Shown: positions 5,183-35,076 of the stretch, piece by piece
Layout: every line of letters begins with the position of its first letter
Numbering within the stretch: the stretch's first letter is position 1
Assembly: GCA_036510065.1 (NCBI GenBank)
Contig: DATCEO010000112.1
Coordinates: 66,720 to 130,719 of the forward strand
Direction of reading: 5' to 3'
DNA length: 64,000 nt
From: Streptosporangiaceae bacterium
GTDB lineage: Bacteria > Actinomycetota > Actinomycetes > Streptosporangiales > Streptosporangiaceae
The notes under the pieces: generated by a model
What the model was told of the DNA's origin: nothing
The model's input: the letters and a program-made list of their open reading frames with translations, nothing else
Database searches by the model: none
Made by a program: the position numbers and the translations under genes

Positions 5183-5278
5183 GACCGATCACGCTGTGAC
5201 ATCGCCGGGACCTCCTCGCCTCACCCGCCAGCACGTTCGAGACCCTATCTCCTGCGGCGAGTCGGCCGGTCCGGGGAG

Positions 5279-7820: not shown

Positions 7821-8644
7821 CCGCCGTTACCGCGCCCGCGGCGCTCCCGCCGCTGGAGGATCCCGGCCTGTTCACCCGCGGTCGCTGGGCCGTCAGCGAC
7901 ACCCTCACCATCACCCGGCGCAACCTGCTGGTCTGGATGCGCGTGCCGGCCTACATCGTCTTCACCGTGATCCAGCCGGTCATGTTCACGCTGATGTTCC
8001 GCTATGTCTTCGGCGGCGCGATCCAGGTGCCGGGCGTGCCCGGCGGGTACGTCAACTTCCTGATCCCCGGGATCATCGCGCAGACCGCGGCGTTCGCCAC
8101 GTTCGGCACGGCCATCGCGCTGGCCCAGGAACTGAAGAAGGGCGTGATCGACCGGCTGAAGTCGATGCCGATGTCCCGCTCGGCGGTCCTGGCCGGCCGG
8201 CTGGTGGCCGACACCGCGCGGATGACCGTGACGATCCTGATCGTCCTCGGGGTGGGGTACGCGGTCGGCTTCCGGTTCCAGAACGGCGCCGCCCCCGCCG
8301 TGCTCATGGTCGTGCTCGCGATCGTGTTCGGCGTGGCGATCTGCCTGATCGCCGCCTTCACCGGGCTGGCCATCGGGGACGAGGAGTCGGTGCAGGCGTT
8401 CGGGCTGATCTGGCTGTTCCCGCTCACCTTCCTCAGCTCGGCGTTCGTCCCGATCTCCTCCATGCCGGGCTGGCTGCAGGCCTTCGCCAACAACCAGCCG
8501 GTCACCTACGTCGTCGACACGATGCGCGCGCTGGCGCTCGGCGGCCCGATCCAGGCCAGCCTGCTCAAGAGCCTCGCGTGGATTGTCGGGATCTTCATCG
8601 TCTTCGCGCCGCTGGCCGTCCGCGCCTACAAGCGGGCGGGCTGA
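7817..8644 (+). CDS. ABC-2 type transporter permease (DrrB-like)
   Basis: Six hydrophobic segments. The start overlaps the ATPase stop by 4 nt. Confidence 0.85.
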   Translation: MTAVTAPAALPPLEDPGLFTRGRWAVSDTLTITRRNLLVWMRVPAYIVFTVIQPVMFTLMFRYVFGGAIQVPGVPGGYVNFLIPGIIAQTAAFATFGTAIALAQELKKGVIDRLKSMPMSRSAVLAGRLVADTARMTVTILIVLGVGYAVGFRFQNGAAPAVLMVVLAIVFGVAICLIAAFTGLAIGDEESVQAFGLIWLFPLTFLSSAFVPISSMPGWLQAFANNQPVTYVVDTMRALALGGPIQASLLKSLAWIVGIFIVFAPLAVRAYKRAG

Positions 8645-12614: not shown

Positions 12615-14450
12615 CTAGTCGACGTGCCGGGCGGCGCCCTGGTCGGCGGACAGGGCCATGGCCGCGTAGGCCCGCAGCGCCGGGCTGACGGGGCGGTCGC
12701 GCTGGGCCGGCTGCCAGCCGGCCTGGTCGGCGGCCGCGCGCCGCCGCGCCAGGACCTCGTCGTCCACGACCAGGCTGATCGACCGGACCGGGATGTCGAT
12801 CTCGATGAGGTCGCCGTCCTCGACGAGGCCGATCAGGCCGCCGGCGGCGGCCTCGGGGGAGACGTGCCCGATCGACAGCCCGCTGGTGCCGCCGGAGAAC
12901 CGGCCGTCGGTGACCAGCGCGCAGGTCTGGCCGAGTCCGCGGCCCTTGAGGAAGCTGGTCGGGTAGAGCATCTCCTGCATGCCAGGCCCGCCGCGGGGTC
13001 CCTCGTACCGGATGACCACGACGTCGCCGGGCTGGATGCGCTTGCCCAGGATCGCGTCGACGGCCTCCTCCTGGCTCTCGCTGACCCGGGCCGGGCCGCG
13101 GAAGGTGAGCCGGTCCGCGGCCACGCCAGCGGTCTTGACGATCGCCCCGTCGGGGGCCAGGTTGCCGCGCAGGACGGCCAGGCCGCCGTCGGTGCTGTAG
13201 GGGGTGGCCGTGGACCGGATGCAGCCGCTGACCGCGTCGACGTCCAGGCTGTCCCAGGTCGCGGTCGAGGAGAACGCCTCGGTGGTGCGCACGCCGCCGG
13301 GGGCGGCGGAGAACAGCTCGAGCGCCTGCGGGGTGGCGGTGCCGCTGCGCACGTCCCAGGCGGCCAGCCAGTCTGCCAGGCCGGCGGCGTGCACGGCGTG
13401 CACGCCGCGGTCCAGCAGGCCGCCGCGGTCCAGCTCGCCGAGGATCGCCGGGATGCCGCCGGCCCGGTGGACGTCCTCCATGTGGTAACTCGAGCTGGGC
13501 GCGACCTTGCAGATGCAGGGCGTCACCCGGCTGAGCTCGTCGATCGCGGCCAGGTCGAAGTCGACCTCAGCCTCGCGGGCGGCCGCCAGCAGGTGCAGCA
13601 CCGTGTTCGTGGAGCCGCCCATCGCGATGTCCAGGCGCATCGCGTTGCTGAACGCGGCCCGGCTGGCGATGCTGCGCGGCAGGACGCCCGCATCGTCTTT
13701 CTCATACCACCGGCGGCACAGGTCGACGATCAGCTCGCCGGCGCGGACAAACAGGTCCCGACGCAGAGCACTCGTCGCCAGCGTCGAGCCATTGCCAGGC
13801 AGCGACAGGCCGAGCGCCTCGGTCAGGCAGTTCATCGAGTTCGCGGTGAACATGCCCGAGCACGACCCGCAGGTCGGGCAGGCCGAGCGCTCGATCGAGG
13901 CCAGCTGGTCGTCGCTGACGCTCGGGTCGGCCGACGCGGTCATCGCGTCGATCAGGTCCAGCCCGGTGCGGGCGACGCCGTCGGTCACGACGGCCTGGCC
14001 GGCCTCCATCGGGCCGCCGCTGACGAACACGGTCGGGATGTTCAGCCGCATGGCCGCGATGAGCATGCCGGGAGTGATCTTGTCGCAGTTGCTGATGCAG
14101 ACCAGCGCGTCGGCCTGATGGGCCTGGACCATGTACTCAACCGAGTCGGCGATCAGCTCGCGGCTGGGCAGGCTGTAGAGCATCCCGCCGTGGCCCATCG
14201 CGATGCCGTCGTCGACCGCGATCGTGTTGAACTCGCGGCCGACACCGCCCGCCGCGGCCACCGCGTCGGCCACCAGCGCGCCCATGTTGCGCAGGTGCAC
14301 GTGGCCGGGCACGAACTGGGTGAAGCTGTTGGCGATCGCGACGATCGGCTTGCCGAAGTCATCGTCGGTCATGCCCGTGGCCCGCCAGAGGGCACGAGCC
14401 CCGGCCATGTTGCGGCCGTGCGTAGAGGTCCGCGAACGCAGAGCAGGCAC
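12615..14450 (-). CDS. ilvD: dihydroxy-acid dehydratase
   Basis: Colinear IlvD motifs [56 protein letters not shown] and [18 protein letters not shown] upstream of GTG 14450. The 20-codon upstream extension in the ORF track was rejected. Confidence 0.96.
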
Positions 14451-16111: not shown

Positions 16112-17032
16112 ATGGGTATGGATACGGATGTGCTGCGCTGGTTCCAGCAGGTCGCCGACGGCACGACGGTGACCGAGGTGAGCGAGCTGGAGTCGGTCAC
16201 TCAGCCGGCCGTCTCGCGAGCCCTGGCCCGGCTCGAGGTCGAGGTGGGGACGCCGCTGCTGCGCCGGTCCGGGCGGACGCTGCGGATGACACACGCCGGC
16301 GCGACGTTTAAGCGACATGTCGACTCGATGCTGCATCAGCTCGACGACGGCATCGCGGCCGTGAATCAGCTCATCGAGCCGGAGACCGGCGCGGTCGCCC
16401 TGGCCTTCCAGCACTCGCTGGGCACCTGGCTCGTGCCCGACCTGGTCCGCAGCTTCCGCTCGGCCCATCCGGCGGTCCGGTTCCTGCTCACTCAGGTGCG
16501 CGACGAGCTCGTCTCCGCCCCGCTGGACGGCGGCCAGGCCGACCTGGAGATCGGCAGCCGCCGCCCGGCCGATCCCGCGCTGGAGTCGAGCCTGCTGGCC
16601 GTCGAGCCGCTGCGGGTGGCCGTGCCGCAGGATCACGAGCTGGCCACGCGGCCGGGCCTCGCGCTCGCGGACCTGTCCGGCGAGCCGTTCGTGGCGCTGC
16701 GGCCGAACTCCGCCCTGCGCAAGCTGAGCGACGAGCTCTGCGACGAGGCCGGCTTCCACCCCGACGTGGTCTTCGAGGGCGATGATCTGTCCACCGTGCG
16801 CGGCTTCGTGGCGGCGGGCCTGGGCGTGGCCATTGTCCCGGCACCCCGGGCCGGATCGCCGGAATCGGCGACCGGGCCGCTGCGCTACTGCGAGATCCTC
16901 GACGTCTGGGCGGCTCGCGAGATCACCCTGACCTGGTCGACCGAGCGCCGGCTGCTGCCGGCCGCCGAGCAGTTCCGGCGGCACGTCCTGGCCCGGGCCT
17001 CGGCCGGCCGGGTGCCGGCGCTGACCAGCTGA
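16112..17032 (+). CDS. LysR family transcriptional regulator
   Basis: N-terminal wHTH LRWFQQVADGTTVTEVSELESVTQPAVSRALARLE plus a LysR substrate-binding domain. Confidence 0.9.
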   Translation: MGMDTDVLRWFQQVADGTTVTEVSELESVTQPAVSRALARLEVEVGTPLLRRSGRTLRMTHAGATFKRHVDSMLHQLDDGIAAVNQLIEPETGAVALAFQHSLGTWLVPDLVRSFRSAHPAVRFLLTQVRDELVSAPLDGGQADLEIGSRRPADPALESSLLAVEPLRVAVPQDHELATRPGLALADLSGEPFVALRPNSALRKLSDELCDEAGFHPDVVFEGDDLSTVRGFVAAGLGVAIVPAPRAGSPESATGPLRYCEILDVWAAREITLTWSTERRLLPAAEQFRRHVLARASAGRVPALTS

Positions 17033-22382: not shown

Positions 22383-23291
22383 TCAGCGGCGGTCGCGGCG
22401 GCGTCTGGCGGCGCGGATCTCGGCGTCGGCGACCTCGTCGGTAAGCAGGGTGTAGAGCTGGGTGGTCTCGGTGGAGGGGTGGCCGAGGCGGCGGCGGACG
22501 ACTTCGATGGAAACGCAGGCGTTGATGAGTTCGATGGCGTGGGCGTGGCGGAGCTGGTGGATGTCGATCTCGACTCCGGCAGCTTCGCAGTAGCTCTCCC
22601 ATCGGTGGTGGACGGCGTCGTAGGACAGGGGACCTCCGTTGCCGTTGATGCTGGCGCGGAAGGCGGGGCCGAACCGGTACCCAGCACGGGTGAGGTAGAG
22701 CTTGAGGAGGGCGACGTAGCCGCGGTCGTCGAGGAGGACGGTGCGGACGGTGCCGCCCTTGCCGTGGATGCGGACGTGCTCGTCGTCTTGGCGGAGGTCG
22801 AAGTCTTCGAGGTCGAGGCTGCAGACTTCGGCGGCGCGTGCTCCGCAGACGTAGATCGTCTCGAACAGGACGCGGTCGCGGAGCCGGTCGAGGGGGACGT
22901 CTTTGCGCGGCCGTCTGCTGCAGATCTTGCCCAGGACCTTGGCGACGTCGTCGGCCGCGGCGGGCCTGGGCAGGGTCTTGGGCACCTTGATGGTGTCGAT
23001 CTTGTCCATGGGGTTGGTGTCGAGGCCGTCCTGGCGGACGGCCCAACGGCAGAAGGAGGAGACGGCGGCGCGTTTGCGCTTGCGGGTCGCGGCCGACAGT
23101 TCGCTGATGTCGGCGAGGAACGCGCGGATCGGGTCGGCGGTGAGGTCGGCGAGTTCGCCGTCGCAGTGGGCGGTGAACTGGAGGAGGTCGCCGCGGTAGG
23201 CGCGGACGGTGTGGGCGGAGGCGTTGGCGTTCTTCTGGTCGGTGAGGAAGTCGTCCAGGTGCCGGGCGAGCGGGTGGTCGCGGCCGAGCTG
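22383..23291 (-). CDS. tyrosine recombinase/integrase (XerC/D-like) with no canonical start for its N-terminal domain (probable pseudogene)
   Basis: Catalytic domain motifs: ARAAEVCSLD, HGKGGTVRTV, HQLRHAHA, LGHPSTETTQLY. The open frame extends up to the stop at 23292-23294 and encodes the core-binding domain (SAHTVRAYRGDLLQF). The first ATG/GTG/TTG in that frame is at 23009. Confidence 0.75.
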   Translation of the reverse strand, partial: QLGRDHPLARHLDDFLTDQKNANASAHTVRAYRGDLLQFTAHCDGELADLTADPIRAFLADISELSAATRKRKRAAVSSFCRWAVRQDGLDTNPMDKIDTIKVPKTLPRPAAADDVAKVLGKICSRRPRKDVPLDRLRDRVLFETIYVCGARAAEVCSLDLEDFDLRQDDEHVRIHGKGGTVRTVLLDDRGYVALLKLYLTRAGYRFGPAFRASINGNGGPLSYDAVHHRWESYCEAAGVEIDIHQLRHAHAIELINACVSIEVVRRRLGHPSTETTQLYTLLTDEVADAEIRAARRRRDRR

Positions 23292-24145: not shown

Positions 24146-24199
24146 GCCGCCGATCTTAAGCCCGCGTGAATGAACCGCGAGGAACCGCAGGCCTTCGGC

Positions 24200-24482
24200 T
24201 CAACCGGCGGTACCGGGCAGGTCGGGGACTTCGCCGAACTGCCGAAGGCCCCGGTCGGGTGCGGAGGCGGTGATGGCGTAGCGGCCCAGGGAAGTTGATG
24301 TGGGCGTGGCCGAGTGGACTGAGGCGGGCGACATCTTCGTCCTTGACCGGGACGCCCTCGGCGCGGAGCTGGTCGACGGCCCCTGACAGGTAGCGGGTGT
24401 TCCACAGCGCGACGGCGCTGACGACCAGGCCGACTTCTTCGGCCAGCTTGACCGGGACTGGCTGGGAAAGTTTCTCCGGCAC
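24200..24482 (-). pseudogene. Tn3-family transposase C-terminal fragment (frameshifted)
   Basis: LVVSAVALWNTRYLSGAVDQLRAEGVPVKDEDVARLSPLGHAHIN, then in another frame LGRYAITASAPDRGLRQF...*. Confidence 0.7.
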
Positions 24483-24483
24483 C

Positions 24484-24830
24484 GGATCGCGGATGAAAGG
24501 GTCCTGCGGCTGATCGGCAAGTGGCTGGCCGCAGGGGTCGTCGAGGACGGGACCTGGGCGGAGACTGACAGGGGATCACCGCAGGGGTCATCGGTTTCGC
24601 CGCTGCTCGCGAACGTGTACCTGCACTACGTCCTGGACCTGTGGGCCGACTGGTGGAGGCGCCGGCACGCGCACGGTGATGTGATCATCATCAGGTTCGC
24701 GGACGACTTCATCGTCGGGTTCGAGCACCGGCAGGACGCCGAGCGGTTCCGGGACGAGCTGGGCGGCAGGTTTGTCCGGCTCGGGTTGGAACTGCACCCG
24801 GCGGAAAACCGGCTCGAAACGGGCACGGGC
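24484..24830 (+). pseudogene. group II intron reverse transcriptase fragment (left part)
   Basis: SPQGSSVSPLLANVYLHYVLDLW...IIRFADDFIVGFEHRQDAERF...LELHPAENRL, including the RT domain 5 ADD motif. Lacks the N-terminus and is cut at 24830 by the nested transposon. Confidence 0.7.
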
Positions 24831-24878
24831 TGTGATCTTCAGAGCTTGATGGCGCGAAATCTTTCGCGCTAAATGGCG

Positions 24879-25775
24879 TTACATGACCCCGATAACGAGG
24901 GATTCGCGGGCGGCGTCGACGACTTCGCTGGTGACAGTGTTGAGTTGGTTGATGTCCATGATGCGGTGGATCTGAGCCATCAGCCGGGTTGTGAGGCGGA
25001 AGTTTCCGCTGGTCGCGCGCAGGATTGCAGCGCGGGCCTCGTTGGTGGTGAAGTCGGCCGCGTCGTCCAGGCCGAGGTGGGGCCAGCGGCGGGTGATGAC
25101 GAAGGTCTGCTCGTCGGCGGTGAGTGGCTGGTAGTGGTGGAGGAATCCGACGCGGCTGTAGAGCTGGGGGTAGCGGGCGAGGCGGCGTTCGATGCCAGGC
25201 ATGCCTATCAGGATGAGGCCGATACCGGTGCGGTCGTGGTGGTCGCGCAGCGCTTCCAGGCTGGGCATTTTGAGACGGTCGGCTTCGTCGACGATGAGCA
25301 GTTCGGCGAAGGGGCCACCGCGTGACGCAAGTTCGGTGGGGCCGCGGTCGGGGTGCAGGGTCTCCTCGATGCACCAGCTGAGCCTGTTGTGCAGGTCGGC
25401 GACTTCCTTGTCGACGACGCGAGGTGTGTTGTGGACCTTGGGCGTGTAAAAGACGGTCCGTGCCGCGATCGCGGACGCGGGGGCCTCGCCGTGCATGAAC
25501 GTGAAACGACGGACGGCTGGCTCTGTTTCTTTCCACTCGCTGTACTGGAGCGCTGACAAGGTCTTGCCCACACCCGGCGGCCCGTAGCACAGGCCGATGT
25601 AGCGGTCGCGGCGCACGGCGTCGCAGAACTCGGCGAAGCGGCGGTGCTGCTTGGTGACAATAAACTCAGTGTGGGGTTGCACGGGTGACTGTGCCTGTCC
25701 AGGTTCGGTGCTGTGCTCACCGGCCGGGTCCGGAGCGGTCACGGTGGGGGCCTGGCCGGTGTCCTGTGATGTCAT
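24879..25775 (-). CDS. tniB: TniB/TnsC-like AAA+ ATPase (transposition helper)
   Basis: Walker A GPPGVGKT and Walker B LLIVDEADRL. Lies immediately downstream of the DDE transposase gene. Confidence 0.85.
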   Translation of the reverse strand: MTSQDTGQAPTVTAPDPAGEHSTEPGQAQSPVQPHTEFIVTKQHRRFAEFCDAVRRDRYIGLCYGPPGVGKTLSALQYSEWKETEPAVRRFTFMHGEAPASAIAARTVFYTPKVHNTPRVVDKEVADLHNRLSWCIEETLHPDRGPTELASRGGPFAELLIVDEADRLKMPSLEALRDHHDRTGIGLILIGMPGIERRLARYPQLYSRVGFLHHYQPLTADEQTFVITRRWPHLGLDDAADFTTNEARAAILRATSGNFRLTTRLMAQIHRIMDINQLNTVTSEVVDAARESLVIGVM

Positions 25776-25784
25776 GCCGGAGGG

Positions 25785-27227
25785 TCAGTCCTCTCGGTAC
25801 AGCTTGAGGGTGCGCTGCGGGACGGGCGGCCTGCCGGGAGCGGCCGGCGCAGCGGGCGGCCCGGTGACTGTGCGTGCGGCCGGATCCTGGTAGCCGGGCT
25901 GGTGAACGGCCAGGAGCTGGTCGACGGCCTTGCTGCGGTCGCCGATGCTGCGCCGCAGCTCGCGGCGGCGGGCGTTGCGCGCGGCGGTGAGCGTCTTGAG
26001 CGCGACGGCTTGCCCGGCGAGTTCGGGGCAGATCACCCGGCACAGGAATGCGCCGTCGTGGAAGACCCGGATCTCGGCCAGGTCGCGGGGGTCGTAGCGG
26101 ATCAGGACGTGCTCGCCGACGTAGGCGGCCAGTACCGGGTCGAGGTAGCGCAGGCCCTGGAAGTGCACGCCGTCGGGATGGATCTTGCGGGGCTTGGCGA
26201 CGGTGAGCAGCAGCAGGTCCAGTTGCTCCAGCGAGTCGGGCATGCGAGGGAGGAACCCGCCGGCTGACCAGCGTCTGGCCGGGGCCTGGCGGGTTTCGCT
26301 GTGCACGCGATGGTTGTAGTCGCCGACCAGGAACCTCCCGATCGCGGCGTCGAGCTCGGCCAGGGTCAGCCGGGCCTGCCCGGCGCGGCCGGGTGTGCCT
26401 GGCGGGCCGTAGCCGGGCAGCGTGGACAGGCACATCTGGTTGACCGTGCTGAATAGCCGCTCGATCTTCCCGCGGCCGCGGGGCTGGCCCGGCAGGGAGA
26501 ACGCCAGCCGCATCTTGATGTCGGCGGCGACCTGCTCAAGGTGCGCCGAGGTGAAGTCGCTGCCGTGGTCGGTGTAGAAGACACCGGGAATGCCGCATAC
26601 CGGCCATCCGGGGTCGGGCTTGCGCCAGATCGCCTGGCGCAATGCCAGCGCGGTGTTGAAGGCTGATGGCGCCTCGAGGGTGACGGCGTAGCCGGCCACC
26701 GCCCGGGAGTGGTCATCTTCGATCGCGGTCAGCCATGGGCGCGCTGTCTGCTGGCCGGGGGTGAGGACCCAGATGTCGAGCTGGGTGTGGTCGGCCTGCC
26801 AGATCCCGTTGGGCGTGCTTGCCTGCCTGCGGTACACCAGGTCGAACACCGCCTGGTAGCGCTTGGTGCCCTCCAGCGCGAGCGTCCGCATGGCCGGGTC
26901 CATCCCGGCGATGACGGAGTACACCGCGCTGTAGGACGGGACTGGCCACCCCTGGGCGGTGGCCACGCCGGTGACCGTGCGGTGGATCGCTGCGGCGCTG
27001 GGAGCGGGCGGGCGCAGCGCCAGGCCCTCGATCAGCGCCACCAGGTCATCGGGCATCCGGCGGCCGCGGTCTGCGCGGGCGGTGCGGGCCAGCCCGGCGA
27101 TCCCGCCGGCGTGGTAGCGCCGCAGCCACCGCTGTGCGGTGCGCAACGGAACCGCGGCCTGGCGTGCGGCTTCGGCCAGGGTGACGCCGTCGTGCAGGTG
27201 CGGTGCCAGCACCGCATGCCGGCCCAT
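25785..27227 (-). CDS. tniA: TniA/TnsB/MuA-family DDE transposase
   Basis: N-terminal HTH (TLAEAARQAAVPLRTAQRWLRRY). DDE core: IWQADHTQLD, FYTDHGSDFTS, RGKIERLF. Mu-transposase-type C-terminal region. Start is uncertain; the ORF is open up to 27401, overlapping the resolvase gene. Confidence 0.85.
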   Translation of the reverse strand: MGRHAVLAPHLHDGVTLAEAARQAAVPLRTAQRWLRRYHAGGIAGLARTARADRGRRMPDDLVALIEGLALRPPAPSAAAIHRTVTGVATAQGWPVPSYSAVYSVIAGMDPAMRTLALEGTKRYQAVFDLVYRRQASTPNGIWQADHTQLDIWVLTPGQQTARPWLTAIEDDHSRAVAGYAVTLEAPSAFNTALALRQAIWRKPDPGWPVCGIPGVFYTDHGSDFTSAHLEQVAADIKMRLAFSLPGQPRGRGKIERLFSTVNQMCLSTLPGYGPPGTPGRAGQARLTLAELDAAIGRFLVGDYNHRVHSETRQAPARRWSAGGFLPRMPDSLEQLDLLLLTVAKPRKIHPDGVHFQGLRYLDPVLAAYVGEHVLIRYDPRDLAEIRVFHDGAFLCRVICPELAGQAVALKTLTAARNARRRELRRSIGDRSKAVDQLLAVHQPGYQDPAARTVTGPPAAPAAPGRPPVPQRTLKLYRED

Positions 27228-27288
27228 CGCCTGCCGGCGTTGCGCGGTGCTCAGCTCAGCCAGCCCGGGGACCGCCGCGGCGTCGTCG

Positions 27289-27867
27289 TTATCCGGCAGC
27301 CCTGGCGAGGTGCCGGTAGATCGTGGGGCGGGTGACGCCGAACTCCGCGGCGATCTCAGCGACCGTATAGCGCCGTTTCCCGTCTTCGCCGGTTTCCTCA
27401 TACATCTCCCGTGCCAGCCTGACCTGCCGCGTGCCCAGCTTTGGTTTCTGGCCCCCGGTTCGGCCGCGGGCGCGGGCGGCGGCCAGGCCGTCCATCGTCC
27501 GCTCCGACATCAGGGCGTGCTCGAACTCGGCGATCGAGCCCAGAATCTGGAAGAACATCCGCCCGACCGCGGTGGAGGTGTCGATGCCCTGGTCCAGCAC
27601 GACCAGGTCCACCTCCCGGGCCCGCAGGAACCTGGACAGCTCGATCAGGTGCTCCAGCGAGCGACCCAGCCGGTCGAGCTTGGTGATCACCAGCTGGTCA
27701 CCCGCCCGGTTGGCCGACAGCAGCGCCCGGTCTAGTTCCGGCCGGCGGGCCAGCTTTCCGGATGCCCTGTCGATGAACACCTCATCGCATCCCGCGGCCC
27801 GCAAGGCGTCGCGCTGCGCTTCGGGGTGCTGATCGCGAGTGGATACCCGCCCGTAGCCGATCCGCAT
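27289..27867 (-). CDS. serine recombinase (resolvase/invertase family)
   Basis: MRIGYGRVSTRDQ (catalytic Ser), VITKLDRLGRS, and a C-terminal HTH TVAEIAAEFGVTRPTIYRHL. Confidence 0.9.
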   Translation of the reverse strand: MRIGYGRVSTRDQHPEAQRDALRAAGCDEVFIDRASGKLARRPELDRALLSANRAGDQLVITKLDRLGRSLEHLIELSRFLRAREVDLVVLDQGIDTSTAVGRMFFQILGSIAEFEHALMSERTMDGLAAARARGRTGGQKPKLGTRQVRLAREMYEETGEDGKRRYTVAEIAAEFGVTRPTIYRHLARAAG

Positions 27868-27917
27868 ACCCTCACAGTATCGCGAACACCCGGGCGCGTG
27901 ACATTGCTGCGTACACG

Positions 27918-27934
27918 GCATGTGTTACACATGC
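27918..27934. promoter_or_regulatory. perfect 17-bp palindrome GCATGTGT-T-ACACATGC, candidate res/operator site
   Basis: Starts about 50 bp upstream of the resolvase start codon. Function is inferred. Confidence 0.3.
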
Positions 27935-28376
27935 GGCCAGCGCAGATGCCGACGGCCAGACTGTGTATCACGGACGTTCGTTACCGCGACGGCTATGACG
28001 ACCGCCCTGACCTGGCTGCGATGGTCAGACAGGGGGGCCGTACGGGCGGATGCGGGGGTTCAGGTCGTTGAGGCACTGCACGTTGGTCGGCGACGAGGTC
28101 GAACGCCGCCGGGTCGCTGCGGCCCAGCCGCTCGACGTATTCGCGCACTACCTGTTCAGGTGTCAATTGATATGCCCCGTCCGGCGCTGAGCTTCGGCTG
28201 GCGGTTCTGGCGGGTGTCGTTGACGACAGCTGCGCGCCGGCGTCGCCGGGATATTGCGGATTGACGTGGACGCAGCTGGCCTGCGAGGAAGGTCCACCTG
28301 GCGGAGTAAGGGCTCAGTATCCAGCAGGGACCCGGCGCCAGGGCGTGGACGACCGCAGCTGCCAGGGGACGGAGGT

Positions 28377-28868
28377 TCATGGCGTTCGCGTCTCGGCGTC
28401 GATCTCACGGCTGCGGCGCTGCGCGGTTTCGCGTGGGTCGTCGATCCGGGTGACCTGGTCGTCGGCGAGCTGGCTGTGGTGTTCGACGGTGTAGAAGCGC
28501 ACCTCGTGGCCGTCGGGGTCGTGCAGCATCGGAAGGATCCAGCCGATGCTGGCGAAATGGACGCCGCCGTGCTGGTCACCGAGGTCGGTCAGCCGCTGGG
28601 CGAGGGCCTCGATGGCTGGCTTGCCGGGCACGCCGATCGCGAAGTAGTCGAAGCCGGCGGCTGCCGCGGCCCGGCCGGGATCCAGCCGGAGCGCGAGGTC
28701 GGGACCGCCGTTCGGGTGCCGCATCGCGATGCCCATCAGGGTTCCCGCCTCGACGAACTCGACCTGGGTCTGGTAGCCGAGCCGGGTCTGGTACCAGGTG
28801 ACGGATCTGGCCAGATCCGTCACCGGAAGCTTCAGGTGGTGGACCCCGGCGAGTGCTGGTGCGGTCAT
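28377..28868 (-). CDS. VOC family protein (glyoxalase/bleomycin-resistance/dioxygenase fold)
   Basis: GVHHLKLPVTDLARSVTWYQTRLGY...DYFAIGVPG...MLHDPDGHEVRFY. Confidence 0.8.
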   Translation of the reverse strand: MTAPALAGVHHLKLPVTDLARSVTWYQTRLGYQTQVEFVEAGTLMGIAMRHPNGGPDLALRLDPGRAAAAAGFDYFAIGVPGKPAIEALAQRLTDLGDQHGGVHFASIGWILPMLHDPDGHEVRFYTVEHHSQLADDQVTRIDDPRETAQRRSREIDAETRTP

Positions 28869-28883
28869 GACACCCCTCCTGAG

Positions 28884-28914
28884 TGCAGTTCCACTGTAAT
28901 GCAGTTAGACTGCA
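28884..28914. promoter_or_regulatory. two adjacent 15-bp palindromes (TGCAGttccaCTGTA, TGCAGttagaCTGCA), candidate TetR operators
   Basis: Located in the 50-bp divergent region between the VOC and TetR genes. Read directly; function is inferred. Confidence 0.45.
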
Positions 28915-28918
28915 CTTC

Positions 28919-29590
28919 ATGGCTCGAGATGTCAACCCGCTTGCCGCAGCCCGCCGGGGCCGTCGCGTCGCAGATACCGAGAGCCGGCTGCTGCAGGCGG
29001 CCAGCCGGCTGTTCATCCGCGATGGCTATTCCGCGACGACGCTCGCGGCCGTTGCCGAGGCAGCCGGCGTCGCGCCGCGCACCGTCTACGTCCGCTTTGG
29101 GACCAAGGCGGCGCTGCTCAAGCGCGCGGTCGACGTCGCCCTGGTCGGCGACACCTCGCCCGTCGACGTCGCCGGACGGGAGTGGATGCAGCGCTCGATG
29201 ACCGCGCCCACCCTGGACGAGCGAATCGCCGCTGGCGCCCGCGGAGCCCGCGACATGATGCATCGAGTCGGCCCGCTGCTGGCCGTCGCCGCCCAGGCCG
29301 AACCCGTCGAGCCCGTCATCGCCGCCGCCGCCCAGGCCGGACGAGAAGCCACCCGCGACTCGTTGCGGCGGTTCTGGACCACGGCCGCCGCCGACGGCCT
29401 GCTCGGGCCCGGCGCCGACGTCGACTGGCTCGCCCAGACCGCCGCCCTCGTCGGCGCCGCCCAGACCTACCTGCTCGCTGCCCGCACTCTCGGCTGGGAC
29501 CCCGACGCCTACGAGCGCTGGCTGATACTCACCTGGCACCGACTCGCCGCCGCCGCAGCGTCCACCCGGACGGACCCACCGCCCGCGTAG
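28919..29590 (+). CDS. TetR/AcrR family transcriptional regulator
   Basis: HTH region LLQAASRLFIRDGYSATTLAAVAEAAGVAPRTVYVRFGTK. Start taken at ATG 28919. Confidence 0.85.
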   Translation: MARDVNPLAAARRGRRVADTESRLLQAASRLFIRDGYSATTLAAVAEAAGVAPRTVYVRFGTKAALLKRAVDVALVGDTSPVDVAGREWMQRSMTAPTLDERIAAGARGARDMMHRVGPLLAVAAQAEPVEPVIAAAAQAGREATRDSLRRFWTTAAADGLLGPGADVDWLAQTAALVGAAQTYLLAARTLGWDPDAYERWLILTWHRLAAAAASTRTDPPPA

Positions 29591-29756
29591 TCGCCTGCCA
29601 GCCCAAGACGACTCATGCTGAGGCCGCCGCCGCGCGCCTCCGGGCCCCTCAGAGAACCGTTCCGGTAGGGGATCGGTTGTGGGACGAGGACGACGGCTCG
29701 GCGCTGACCGCCAGATAGCGCTGCGAAATTACCGCCACTTACCGCTGACAGTCACA

Positions 29757-30080
29757 CACGGGCCAAGCTTGCCGAGATGGCTGGCCGCCGTGGTACGCGG
29801 GCACCAGGCCTGTTACGCGGTGCCCGGCAACAGCGACGCGGTGAACGCCTTCCGCACCCAGGTGATACGGCACTGGCGCAAGGCGCTGCGGCGCCGCAGC
29901 CAGAGAACCCGGCTCACCTGGGCCAGGATGAACCGCATCGCAGCCCGGTGGATACCCCCGACCCGCACCGTGCCCGCAGGCGCGCTTCGCCGCCCCGCAC
30001 CCAAGGTAGGAGCCCAGTGCGGTAGTTCCGCACGCCGGGATCTGCGCGGGGGGCCGCCCGCAAGGGCGGTCCCTACCGCG
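29757..30080 (+). pseudogene. group II intron reverse transcriptase fragment (right part, maturase/X region and C-terminus)
   Basis: RWLAAVVRGHQACYAVPGNSDAVNAFRTQVIRHWRKALRRRSQRTRLTWARMNRIAARW. This resumes the RT interrupted at 24830, but about 70 aa of the RT are missing and the frames do not join. Confidence 0.65.
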
Positions 30081-34056: not shown

Positions 34057-35076
34057 ATGCAGTACCGCACCCTCGGCCGGACCGGCATCCAGGTCACCCC
34101 CTACGCCCTGGGCACCCTGATGTTCGCCACCGTCATGGGCAATGCCCCCGAGGACTCGGCCCGCATCATCCACAAGGCGCTGGACGCCGGCATCAACTTC
34201 ATCGACACCGCCGACGCCTACGGCGACTCCGAGGACGTCGTCGGCAAGGCGTTGGAAGGGCGCCGCGACGACGTCGTGCTCGCCACCAAGTTCGGCCGCC
34301 CGACCGGCCGGGACCCCAACCACCAGGGCGCCTCACGGCGCTGGATTGTCACCGCCGTGGAGAACTCGCTGCGCCGCCTGCAGACCGACTACATCGACCT
34401 CTACCAGCTCCACCGTCCCGACCCCGGCACCGACATCGAGGAGACCCTCTCCGCGCTGACCGACCTGATCCGCAGCGGCAAGGTCCGCGCGATCGGCGCG
34501 TCGATGACCCCCGCCTCCGACATCGTCGAGGCCCAGTGGGTCGCCGAGCGGCGCGGCCTCGCGCGATTCCACACCGAGCAGCCGTGCTACTCCATCCTCA
34601 ACCGCGGCATCGAACGCGAGATCCTGCCCGCCACCCAGCGCTTCGGCATGGGCGCCCTGGTCTGGGGCCCGCTCGGCCAGGGCCTGCTCACCGGCCGCGT
34701 ACGCAAGAACCAGGACAACAACCTACGGCGCGCCGGCCTGGTCCAGCATCTCAACGACGAACGCCGCCTCGACGCGGTCGAAAAGCTCATCCCCCTCGCC
34801 GCCGAGGCAGGACTGCCCATGACCCACCTCGCGATGGCGTTCACCATCGCCCACCCTGGCGTCACCAGCGCACTGATCGGCGTCCGCACCATGGACCACC
34901 TCGACGGCCTGCTCGCCGGCCTGGACGTCACCCTCACCGACGACGTCCTCGACCGCATCGATGAGATCGTCCCGCCCGGCACCGACGTCGGCACCCTCGA
35001 CCAGGCCTACCAGCCCCCAGCCCTGGCAAACCCGGGCCTGCGTCGCCGCCTCCCGGCCGAACGCGCCGCAGCCTGA
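34057..35076 (+). CDS. aldo/keto reductase
   Basis: MQYRTLGRTGIQVTPYALGT, INFIDTADAYG, IDLYQLHRPD, GKVRAIGAS. Confidence 0.9.
   Translation: MQYRTLGRTGIQVTPYALGTLMFATVMGNAPEDSARIIHKALDAGINFIDTADAYGDSEDVVGKALEGRRDDVVLATKFGRPTGRDPNHQGASRRWIVTAVENSLRRLQTDYIDLYQLHRPDPGTDIEETLSALTDLIRSGKVRAIGASMTPASDIVEAQWVAERRGLARFHTEQPCYSILNRGIEREILPATQRFGMGALVWGPLGQGLLTGRVRKNQDNNLRRAGLVQHLNDERRLDAVEKLIPLAAEAGLPMTHLAMAFTIAHPGVTSALIGVRTMDHLDGLLAGLDVTLTDDVLDRIDEIVPPGTDVGTLDQAYQPPALANPGLRRRLPAERAAA

Follow-up and report, generated by a model that had tools for sequence, protein, structure and literature searches.

What kind of mobile element is built from a DDE transposase, an AAA+ ATPase and a serine resolvase with no TniQ, and is the copy carried by a Streptosporangiaceae bacterium a true insertion? 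This question is raised by a 64-kb stretch of contig DATCEO010000112.1 (hereafter the window, 64,000 nt in full), in which the first-pass annotation, made from the letters alone, had recognized a transposon of this composition inside a dead reverse transcriptase gene. The transposon occupies window positions 24831-29756 (4926 bp), and we consider it, with high confidence, a Tn552-family unit transposon, named by its closest characterised relative, Tn552 of Staphylococcus aureus.

Is the segment a discrete insertion? Metagenome contigs were searched for the predicted empty site, in which the two flanks are joined by a single CACGGGC, and the resulting sequence GAAACGGGCACGGGCCAAGCTTGCC has an exact match in four of them (L038-L041). 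One of the four, L040, is syntenic with the window and shares 99.1-99.8% identity with it on both flanks, extending into the neighbouring Tn3 fragment and VOC gene. Since an uninterrupted allele with a single CACGGGC exists in this syntenic contig, the element is shown to be a discrete insertion, and its target duplication to span 7 bp. The first-pass annotation had given the 4926-bp segment, the 9/12 tips and the CACGGGC on both sides correctly, and had left a choice between a duplication of 7 bp and one of 5 bp. The longer is retained, because the empty site holds the heptamer once and the TGT...ACA tips are conserved across relatives; the 5-bp reading is rejected, as it needs a right tip unlike these conserved tips. 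Another candidate explanation was that the 7-bp repeat is a coincidence left by a transposon-made adjacent deletion, given that 69 amino acids (aa) of the target protein are missing, and it was dropped because the empty-site allele contains the intact target heptamer. In vitro, Tn552 can give duplications of 6-7 bp.

To which family does the element belong? Its minus strand carries, in this order, the resolvase, the transposase and the ATPase, the stop codon of the last abutting the left end, while the cargo, a VOC gene and a divergent TetR gene, lies between the resolvase and the right end. By tblastn, the transposase matches an S. aureus plasmid gene located next to binL and bla (47%, E 1e-119), and it can be aligned collinearly over its full length with the 480-aa p480 of Tn552 (46%), D146, D220 and E256 being invariant. 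Over 269 aa, the ATPase shares 43% identity with the pSJH901 p271 (E 1e-74), the Walker A and Walker B motifs being aligned, and the resolvase is 41% identical to Tn552 BinL. The authentic Tn552 in pSJH901 (L037 1339-7883, 6545 bp) consists of blaZ, blaR1, blaI, binL, p480, p271 and the end, with tips TGTCAC...GTGACA. Because Tn552 has the same core layout, the absence of TniQ is the normal state of the family, not a loss. Neither TniQ nor TnsD was found among the genes of the element or its unassigned open reading frames (ORFs), including the spacer of about 455 bp, with Pfam models at E up to 10; the same search detected no TniQ homologue in 27868-28376, where one would have spoken against the proposal of the first-pass annotation.

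The features of the element and its target are as follows, by window position.

24423..24823, plus strand: left piece of the target, a relic of a group II intron reverse transcriptase (RT) covering LtrA residues 209-339, with a 140-bp deletion at about 24798-24801 (LtrA match; comparison with L040 and L039).
24824..24830, no strand: left copy of the target-site duplication, CACGGGC (a single copy in the empty-site contigs).
24831..24878, plus strand: ATPase-proximal terminal repeat, tip TGTGA, with two tandem 24-bp presumed transposase-binding sites (tip identical in the Mycobacterium avium and M. gordonae relatives).
24879..25775, minus strand: p271-like AAA+ ATPase, 298 aa, Walker A GPPGVGKT, Walker B LLIVDEAD (Pfam AAA_22, E 3e-18; 43% to Tn552 p271).
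25785..27227, minus strand: p480-like DDE transposase, 480 aa from Met59, open frame up to 27401 (rve and Mu-transpos_C; 46% to p480).
27289..27867, minus strand: serine resolvase, 192 aa from MRIGYGRVST, open frame up to 27921 (PF00239, E 1e-42; 41% to BinL, E 2e-41).
27868..28010, minus strand: putative res site and promoter region, with an imperfect palindrome at 27907-27945 (conserved in three Mycobacterium relatives; palindromes).
28377..28868, minus strand: cargo VOC / glyoxalase-fold protein, 163 aa (PF00903; weak FosA and dioxygenase matches only).
28919..29590, plus strand: cargo TetR-family regulator, 223 aa in metagenome gene calls, ORF from 28883, divergent from the VOC gene (PF00440, E 1e-15).
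29709..29756, minus strand: cargo-side terminal repeat, tip TGTGA reading inward, with two tandem 24-bp sites at 29733-29756 and 29709-29732 (sequence pattern).
29757..29763, no strand: right copy of the target-site duplication, CACGGGC (comparison with the empty-site contigs).
29764..30079, plus strand: right piece of the target, the same RT relic, LtrA residues 409-478 followed by a frameshift, with a 53-bp deletion at about 29776 (LtrA match; comparison with L040 and L039).

The protein lengths agree with the gene calls of public assemblies, which give 480 aa for the transposase and 192 aa for the resolvase; the full 538-aa transposase ORF has no exact record in the look-up, and the 480-aa form from Met59 is on record. 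The proposal of a TniQ-less transposase/ATPase/resolvase transposon with Tn552 architecture is borne out by homology and by gene order, the latter being exactly that of Tn552 itself and not a variation on it, and the VOC and TetR cargo is confirmed by PF00903 and PF00440. The names TniA and TniB, used for the two proteins in the first-pass annotation, are loose, the transposase being of the p480 type and the ATPase of the p271 type. Among the profile searches that it had suggested, those for rve, Mu-transpos_C and Resolvase gave matches, but that for TniB did not, the ATPase being an AAA_22 protein.

The ends carry further information. The element begins with TGTGATCTTCAG and terminates with CTGACAGTCACA, so that its tips are TGTGA...TCACA, and the inverted repeats match at 9/12 positions at the tips and at 30/48 across the terminal 48 bp. 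Each end consists of two 24-bp units in tandem. On the left these are TGTGATCTTCAGAGCTTGATGGCG and CGAAATCTTTCGCGCTAAATGGCG (24831-24854 and 24855-24878), and on the right, on the opposite strand and reading inward, TGTGACTGTCAGCGGTAAGTGGCG and GTAATTTCGCAGCGCTATCTGGCG (29733-29756 and 29709-29732). The sites are G+C-rich (..TGGCG). The weaker similarity over about 45 bp noted earlier is thus real, though it is better described as two tandem 24-bp sites per end, which is also what the suggested look for repeated motifs near the ends brought to light. Rowland et al. reportedly found in 1995 that p480 binds two 23-bp direct repeats at each end of Tn552. The two-site pattern, GNGNTNNNTGGCG, 11 N and GNGNTNNNTGGCG again, has exactly two matches in the window, one per end and in opposite orientation, versus a chance expectation of 0.04 hits with one mismatch allowed. 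This count is circular by itself, because the pattern was built from these very sites; however, the same pattern occurs at the ends of four independent relatives (L001, L002, L003 and L011). The sole other match in the window, with one mismatch, lies at 34605-34641 on the minus strand, has neither a partner nor a TGT tip, and is probably due to chance. The G+C content is 66-73% throughout the region, and that of the element is no different from that of its flanks. The element has its closest relatives in Mycobacterium and Micromonospora, which, taken with the G+C content, suggests an actinobacterial host.

The likeness to Tn552 thus extends over the resolvase-transposase-ATPase-end order, the 480-aa transposase, the TGT...ACA tips, the tandem pair of roughly 24-bp sites at each end and the lack of TniQ. 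In addition, the cargo is on the resolvase side in both (bla in Tn552, VOC and TetR here), and relatives of the element insert beside resolvase genes. The differences are the 48-bp terminal repeats, compared with about 120 bp in Tn552, the high-G+C host, the G+C-rich ..TGGCG sites, the 7-bp duplication versus the reported 6 bp, a location outside res, and VOC/TetR cargo in place of blaZ-blaR1-blaI.

Into what did the element insert? The two flanks derive from a single group II intron RT. With an Agrobacterium LtrA as reference, the left flank corresponds to residues 209-339 and the right one to 409-478, in differing frames, so the two are pieces of the same dead RT, as had been proposed, but they are non-adjacent, about 69 aa being absent at the junction. 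The gap is explained by two small deletions hugging the element in the lineage of the window, one of 140 bp ending about 31 bp to its left and one of 53 bp starting about 20 bp to its right, neither of which occurs in the empty-site allele L040 or in the intact L039 intron. A different RT deletion (147 bp, window 24550-24696) is present in L040, and the RT is also 5'-truncated beside a Tn3 transposase fragment. The RT is a pseudogene that decays independently in each lineage, and the element landed in this already dead gene after its lineage and that of L040 had diverged. In L038 and L039 (L039 630-2099), a 489-aa group II intron RT that is intact and about 95% identical to the relic in DNA lies in another genomic context, so that this intron family seems to be still alive in related organisms.

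The surroundings as a whole are a graveyard of mobile DNA. A C-terminal fragment of a Tn3-family transposase (24156-24482, minus strand) adjoins the RT relic, a tyrosine recombinase gene lies nearby (22383-23009, minus strand), and a second PF01526 fragment follows the sigma-factor gene in matching contigs.

How widespread are such elements, and where do they insert? A protein-guided genome scan yielded 17 loci, the hosts being Mycobacterium gordonae, Micromonospora, Arthrobacter, Chloroflexota, Armatimonadota, Acidobacteriaceae, Methylomicrobium and several Alpha- and Deltaproteobacteria, and the same end structure was found in relatives from Mycobacterium, Micromonospora, Chloroflexota, Armatimonadota and Proteobacteria. 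In actinobacterial and staphylococcal members the resolvase gene precedes the transposase gene; in several proteobacterial ones it follows the ATPase gene. On plasmids, p271-like ATPases are present in 787 PLSDB records, led by Staphylococcus and including Mycobacterium, Microbacterium, Clavibacter and Rhodococcus, and a library of 1.8 billion proteins contains 251 cluster representatives of them (E up to 1e-30). Relatives that share these ends but lie between other flanks do exist, of which the first-pass annotation had allowed that there might be none; exact look-ups of the ATPase, the transposase and the neighbouring sigma factor, however, retrieved no second copy of this very element.

The mycobacterial relatives are the most informative about targets. 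The left tip is precisely where similarity to M. avium and M. paragordonae plasmids starts in megablast comparisons. The M. gordonae contig L003 (4062 bp) starts and stops exactly at the two tips, which suggests that its element is a repeat, present in several copies in that genome. In M. avium pS1-3a, the ATPase-side tip is 82 bp upstream of a second, plasmid-borne resolvase gene (L001 1100-1182), and in M. paragordonae the cargo-side tip is 79 bp upstream of another resolvase gene (L002 8734-8814). Identity between the M. avium copy and the M. gordonae element is 99.97%, but it extends only to a point some 157 bp upstream of the resolvase gene of the M. avium copy (L001 4423), and the breakpoint falls in palindrome-rich DNA conserved among these elements; judged by this breakpoint, the copy appears to be recombined within its own presumed res. 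For Tn552, res sites are known as insertion hot spots, and Bin-mediated recombination gives rise to truncated variants (PMC3276174). By analogy, the mycobacterial pattern parallels this published behaviour, including the Tn552-delta variants of staphylococcal plasmids.

The Armatimonadota relative (L011, 8486 bp) has four tandem 24-bp sites at its transposase-proximal end (7864-7959) and two at the other (16302-16349), and is flanked by an 8-bp direct repeat, CTTCCCCC. In Methylomicrobium lacus, 8535-bp composites that are 99.6-99.97% identical occur on a plasmid and on the chromosome (L008 889-9423, L009 4285-12819); their immediate flanks are unlike, with 10-bp and 9-bp direct repeats, and there are several nested or tandem ends, which suggests recent activity, including insertion into sister copies. 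The flanks of another relative (L015, 9086 bp; 5229-5242 and 14329-14342) form a 14-bp perfect inverted repeat, GGAGCAGGTCTCAT and ATGAGACCTGCTCC, not a direct one, for which insertion into a palindromic site or a later inversion is possible.

Several observations weigh against the Tn552 assignment, or against the picture of an element that moves as Tn552 does. The duplication is 7 bp here, versus the 6 bp published for Tn552 and for the Listeria transposon Tn6870 (PMC3276174, PMC7698968); 10-bp repeats have also been reported for Tn552 in sin res sites (PMC3276174). Direct repeats at the relatives are inconsistent, being 8 bp long in L011 and 9-10 bp at the nested Methylomicrobium copies but missing from L012 and L013, while the flanks of L015 are inverted; consequently they were not used to fix the duplication length of the family. 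In the window, the element did not insert into a res site. Its own res site is putative, proposed only from conservation and palindromes: a stretch of about 130 bp upstream of the resolvase gene is conserved with three Mycobacterium relatives and contains palindromes. Furthermore, the exact element, traced by exact look-ups of the ATPase, transposase and sigma-factor genes, occupies one insertion site only, in more than 20 metagenome contigs. Lastly, the ATPase gene is frameshifted in a sublineage by a 1-nt insertion at about 25549, outside any homopolymer (L028, L032 and L035); a fourth contig has the same shortened ATPase gene, judged from gene calls only, and a C-to-T change at 26263 is linked with the frameshift.

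The last two observations bear on the strongest of the rival explanations, which accepts the family and concerns present activity only, namely that this copy is a relic, fixed and decaying, which has ceased to move. We place it just short of an even chance. One site in every contig that carries the copy, the frameshift that truncates the ATPase in the three contigs, the deletions in both flanks, whether made since the insertion or around that time, and end repeats that match at just 30/48 are what such a relic would present. On the other hand, all three genes are intact in the window and the catalytic residues are present, the duplication is perfect, the copies differ by no more than 4 substitutions, and imperfect ends are normal in the family, those of Tn6870 matching at 39/48 (PMC7698968). 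The insertion postdates the divergence from the L040 lineage, yet it is fixed, and it is decaying in part of the population. The earlier description of the insertion as fairly recent thus holds with respect to the L040 split, but has to be set against fixation at one site in those contigs and decay in one sublineage.

A much weaker alternative, which we regard as very improbable, is a Tn5053/Tn402-family "res hunter" from which tniQ was lost. Such elements share with it a transposase with rve and Mu-transpos_C domains, an AAA+ partner, a serine resolvase, arrayed end sites and a preference for res sites, and relatives of the present element do adjoin resolvase genes. However, TniQ is required there and absent here, with no remnant of it in the spacer ORFs at Pfam E up to 10. 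The transposase is only about 29-30% identical to Tn402/Tn21 TniA and to TnsB (E about 1e-17; about 29% for TniA), versus 47% (E 1e-119) for the p480 match. The ATPase matches neither the Pfam TniB model PF05621 nor IstB_IS21 PF01695, and no enterobacterial tniB carrier is among the 787 plasmid records that match it; the comparison with TniB consists of these Pfam models and of that absence among plasmid matches. Moreover, Tn5053/Tn402 elements make 5-bp duplications, not 7-bp ones, and their gene order is unlike the resolvase-transposase-ATPase order that the element shares with Tn552.

More improbable still is an IS21-like element (IstA/IstB) with passenger genes. It has in its favour a weak match of the transposase to the NCBIfam IS21 model NF033546 (30.7 bits, E 2e-7), which is far below the cut-off of 160 bits, as is the match to IS481; Mu-transpos_C is present, IstB_IS21 gives no match, the transposase and the ATPase are collinear end to end with p480 and p271, and a resolvase and multi-site ends are foreign to IS21. 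The proteins are Tn552-like, not IS21/IstB-like, by both the IS21 score and the alignments, in agreement with the first-pass annotation, which had named the latter as what would speak against it. Finally, the idea that the tips and the 7-bp repeats arose by chance and that the genes are no mobile unit can be dismissed as utterly improbable, the modest 9/12 tip match with nothing further being outweighed by the empty-site allele, by two-site ends conserved in relatives from five phyla and by the pattern expectation of 0.04.

Within the Tn552 assignment, the element can be compared with several other systems. Tn552 has been grouped with Tn7, Tn5090 and Tn5053 by its arrayed end sites (PMC8649781). 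Tn7-like elements, Mu and B3 share with the present element a DDE transposase with a Mu-type C-terminal domain, an AAA+ target-binding partner and TG...CA multi-site ends; the element differs from them in having a resolvase and in being without TnsA, TnsD/TniQ, TnsE or phage genes (none of the three Tns types was found within 24831-29756). Closer counterparts are Tn6870 of Listeria, a Tn552-like transposon with cadA6 as cargo, 48-bp inverted repeats matching at 39/48 and a 6-bp duplication (PMC7698968), and a module beside erm(50) on the Cutibacterium acnes plasmids pKB112/pTZC1, whose recombinase, "Tn552 transposase" and AAA ATPase are of 202, 476 and 271 aa (PMC10674219). Both are Tn552-like units with non-bla cargo, likened here by description and not by sequence identity, and the C. 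acnes module has an actinobacterial host and the same three genes; the two differ from the present element in cargo and host, and Tn6870 in its 6-bp repeats.

How would such an element move? On the model of Tn552, Mu and Tn7, transposase protomers would bind the two sites at each end, four 24-bp sites in all, and pair the ends. The transposase would then nick at the 3' CA ends and join them to target DNA with a 7-bp stagger, the ATPase probably acting as a MuB/TnsC-like partner on the target DNA, with no need for TniQ. Replication through the element would give a cointegrate, a route implied by the presence of a resolvase, which would resolve it at the predicted res region upstream of its own gene.

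Is the element new? It is an ordinary member of the known Tn552 family and does not reveal a new mechanism. Because of the C. acnes plasmid module, the family is already documented in an actinobacterium (PMC10674219); a Tn552-like transposon has been described in Pseudomonas putida (PMC3894933), and "Tn552 transposase" appears as an annotation on Clavibacter plasmids (PMC5358740). The first-pass annotation had considered such an architecture in a high-G+C actinobacterium poorly documented. This is fair, because no paper devoted to the high-G+C branch of the family was found in the literature, where Tn552 in connection with Mycobacterium came up only as a mutagenesis tool; the novelty was nevertheless overrated, given the 787 PLSDB plasmids, Tn6870 and the C. 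acnes module.

We tentatively raise one broader possibility, which we consider unlikely on balance but worth stating. The element may belong to a coherent and essentially undescribed cross-phylum branch of Tn552, spread over Actinomycetota, Chloroflexota, Armatimonadota and Alpha-, Gamma- and Deltaproteobacteria and sharing the 24-bp ..TGGCG sites, in which targets would be chosen by the transposase and the p271-type ATPase alone, plasmid res sites would be favoured while 7-bp chromosomal insertions occur elsewhere too, and the cargo would be of varied metabolic or detoxification types.

The practical value of the finding is modest. Genes of this kind are at present labelled only as "Mu transposase C-terminal domain protein", "AAA family ATPase" and "recombinase", and an example that is exact to the base pair, with its ends, 7-bp duplication and empty site, could improve their annotation. 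For the family, Tn552, usually seen as the staphylococcal penicillinase transposon, has well-preserved relatives with other cargo in uncultured high-G+C bacteria and in several phyla. If the cross-phylum branch exists, its two-protein, TniQ-less targeting would provide a simple model of the sensing of resolvase-bound DNA by AAA+ partners.

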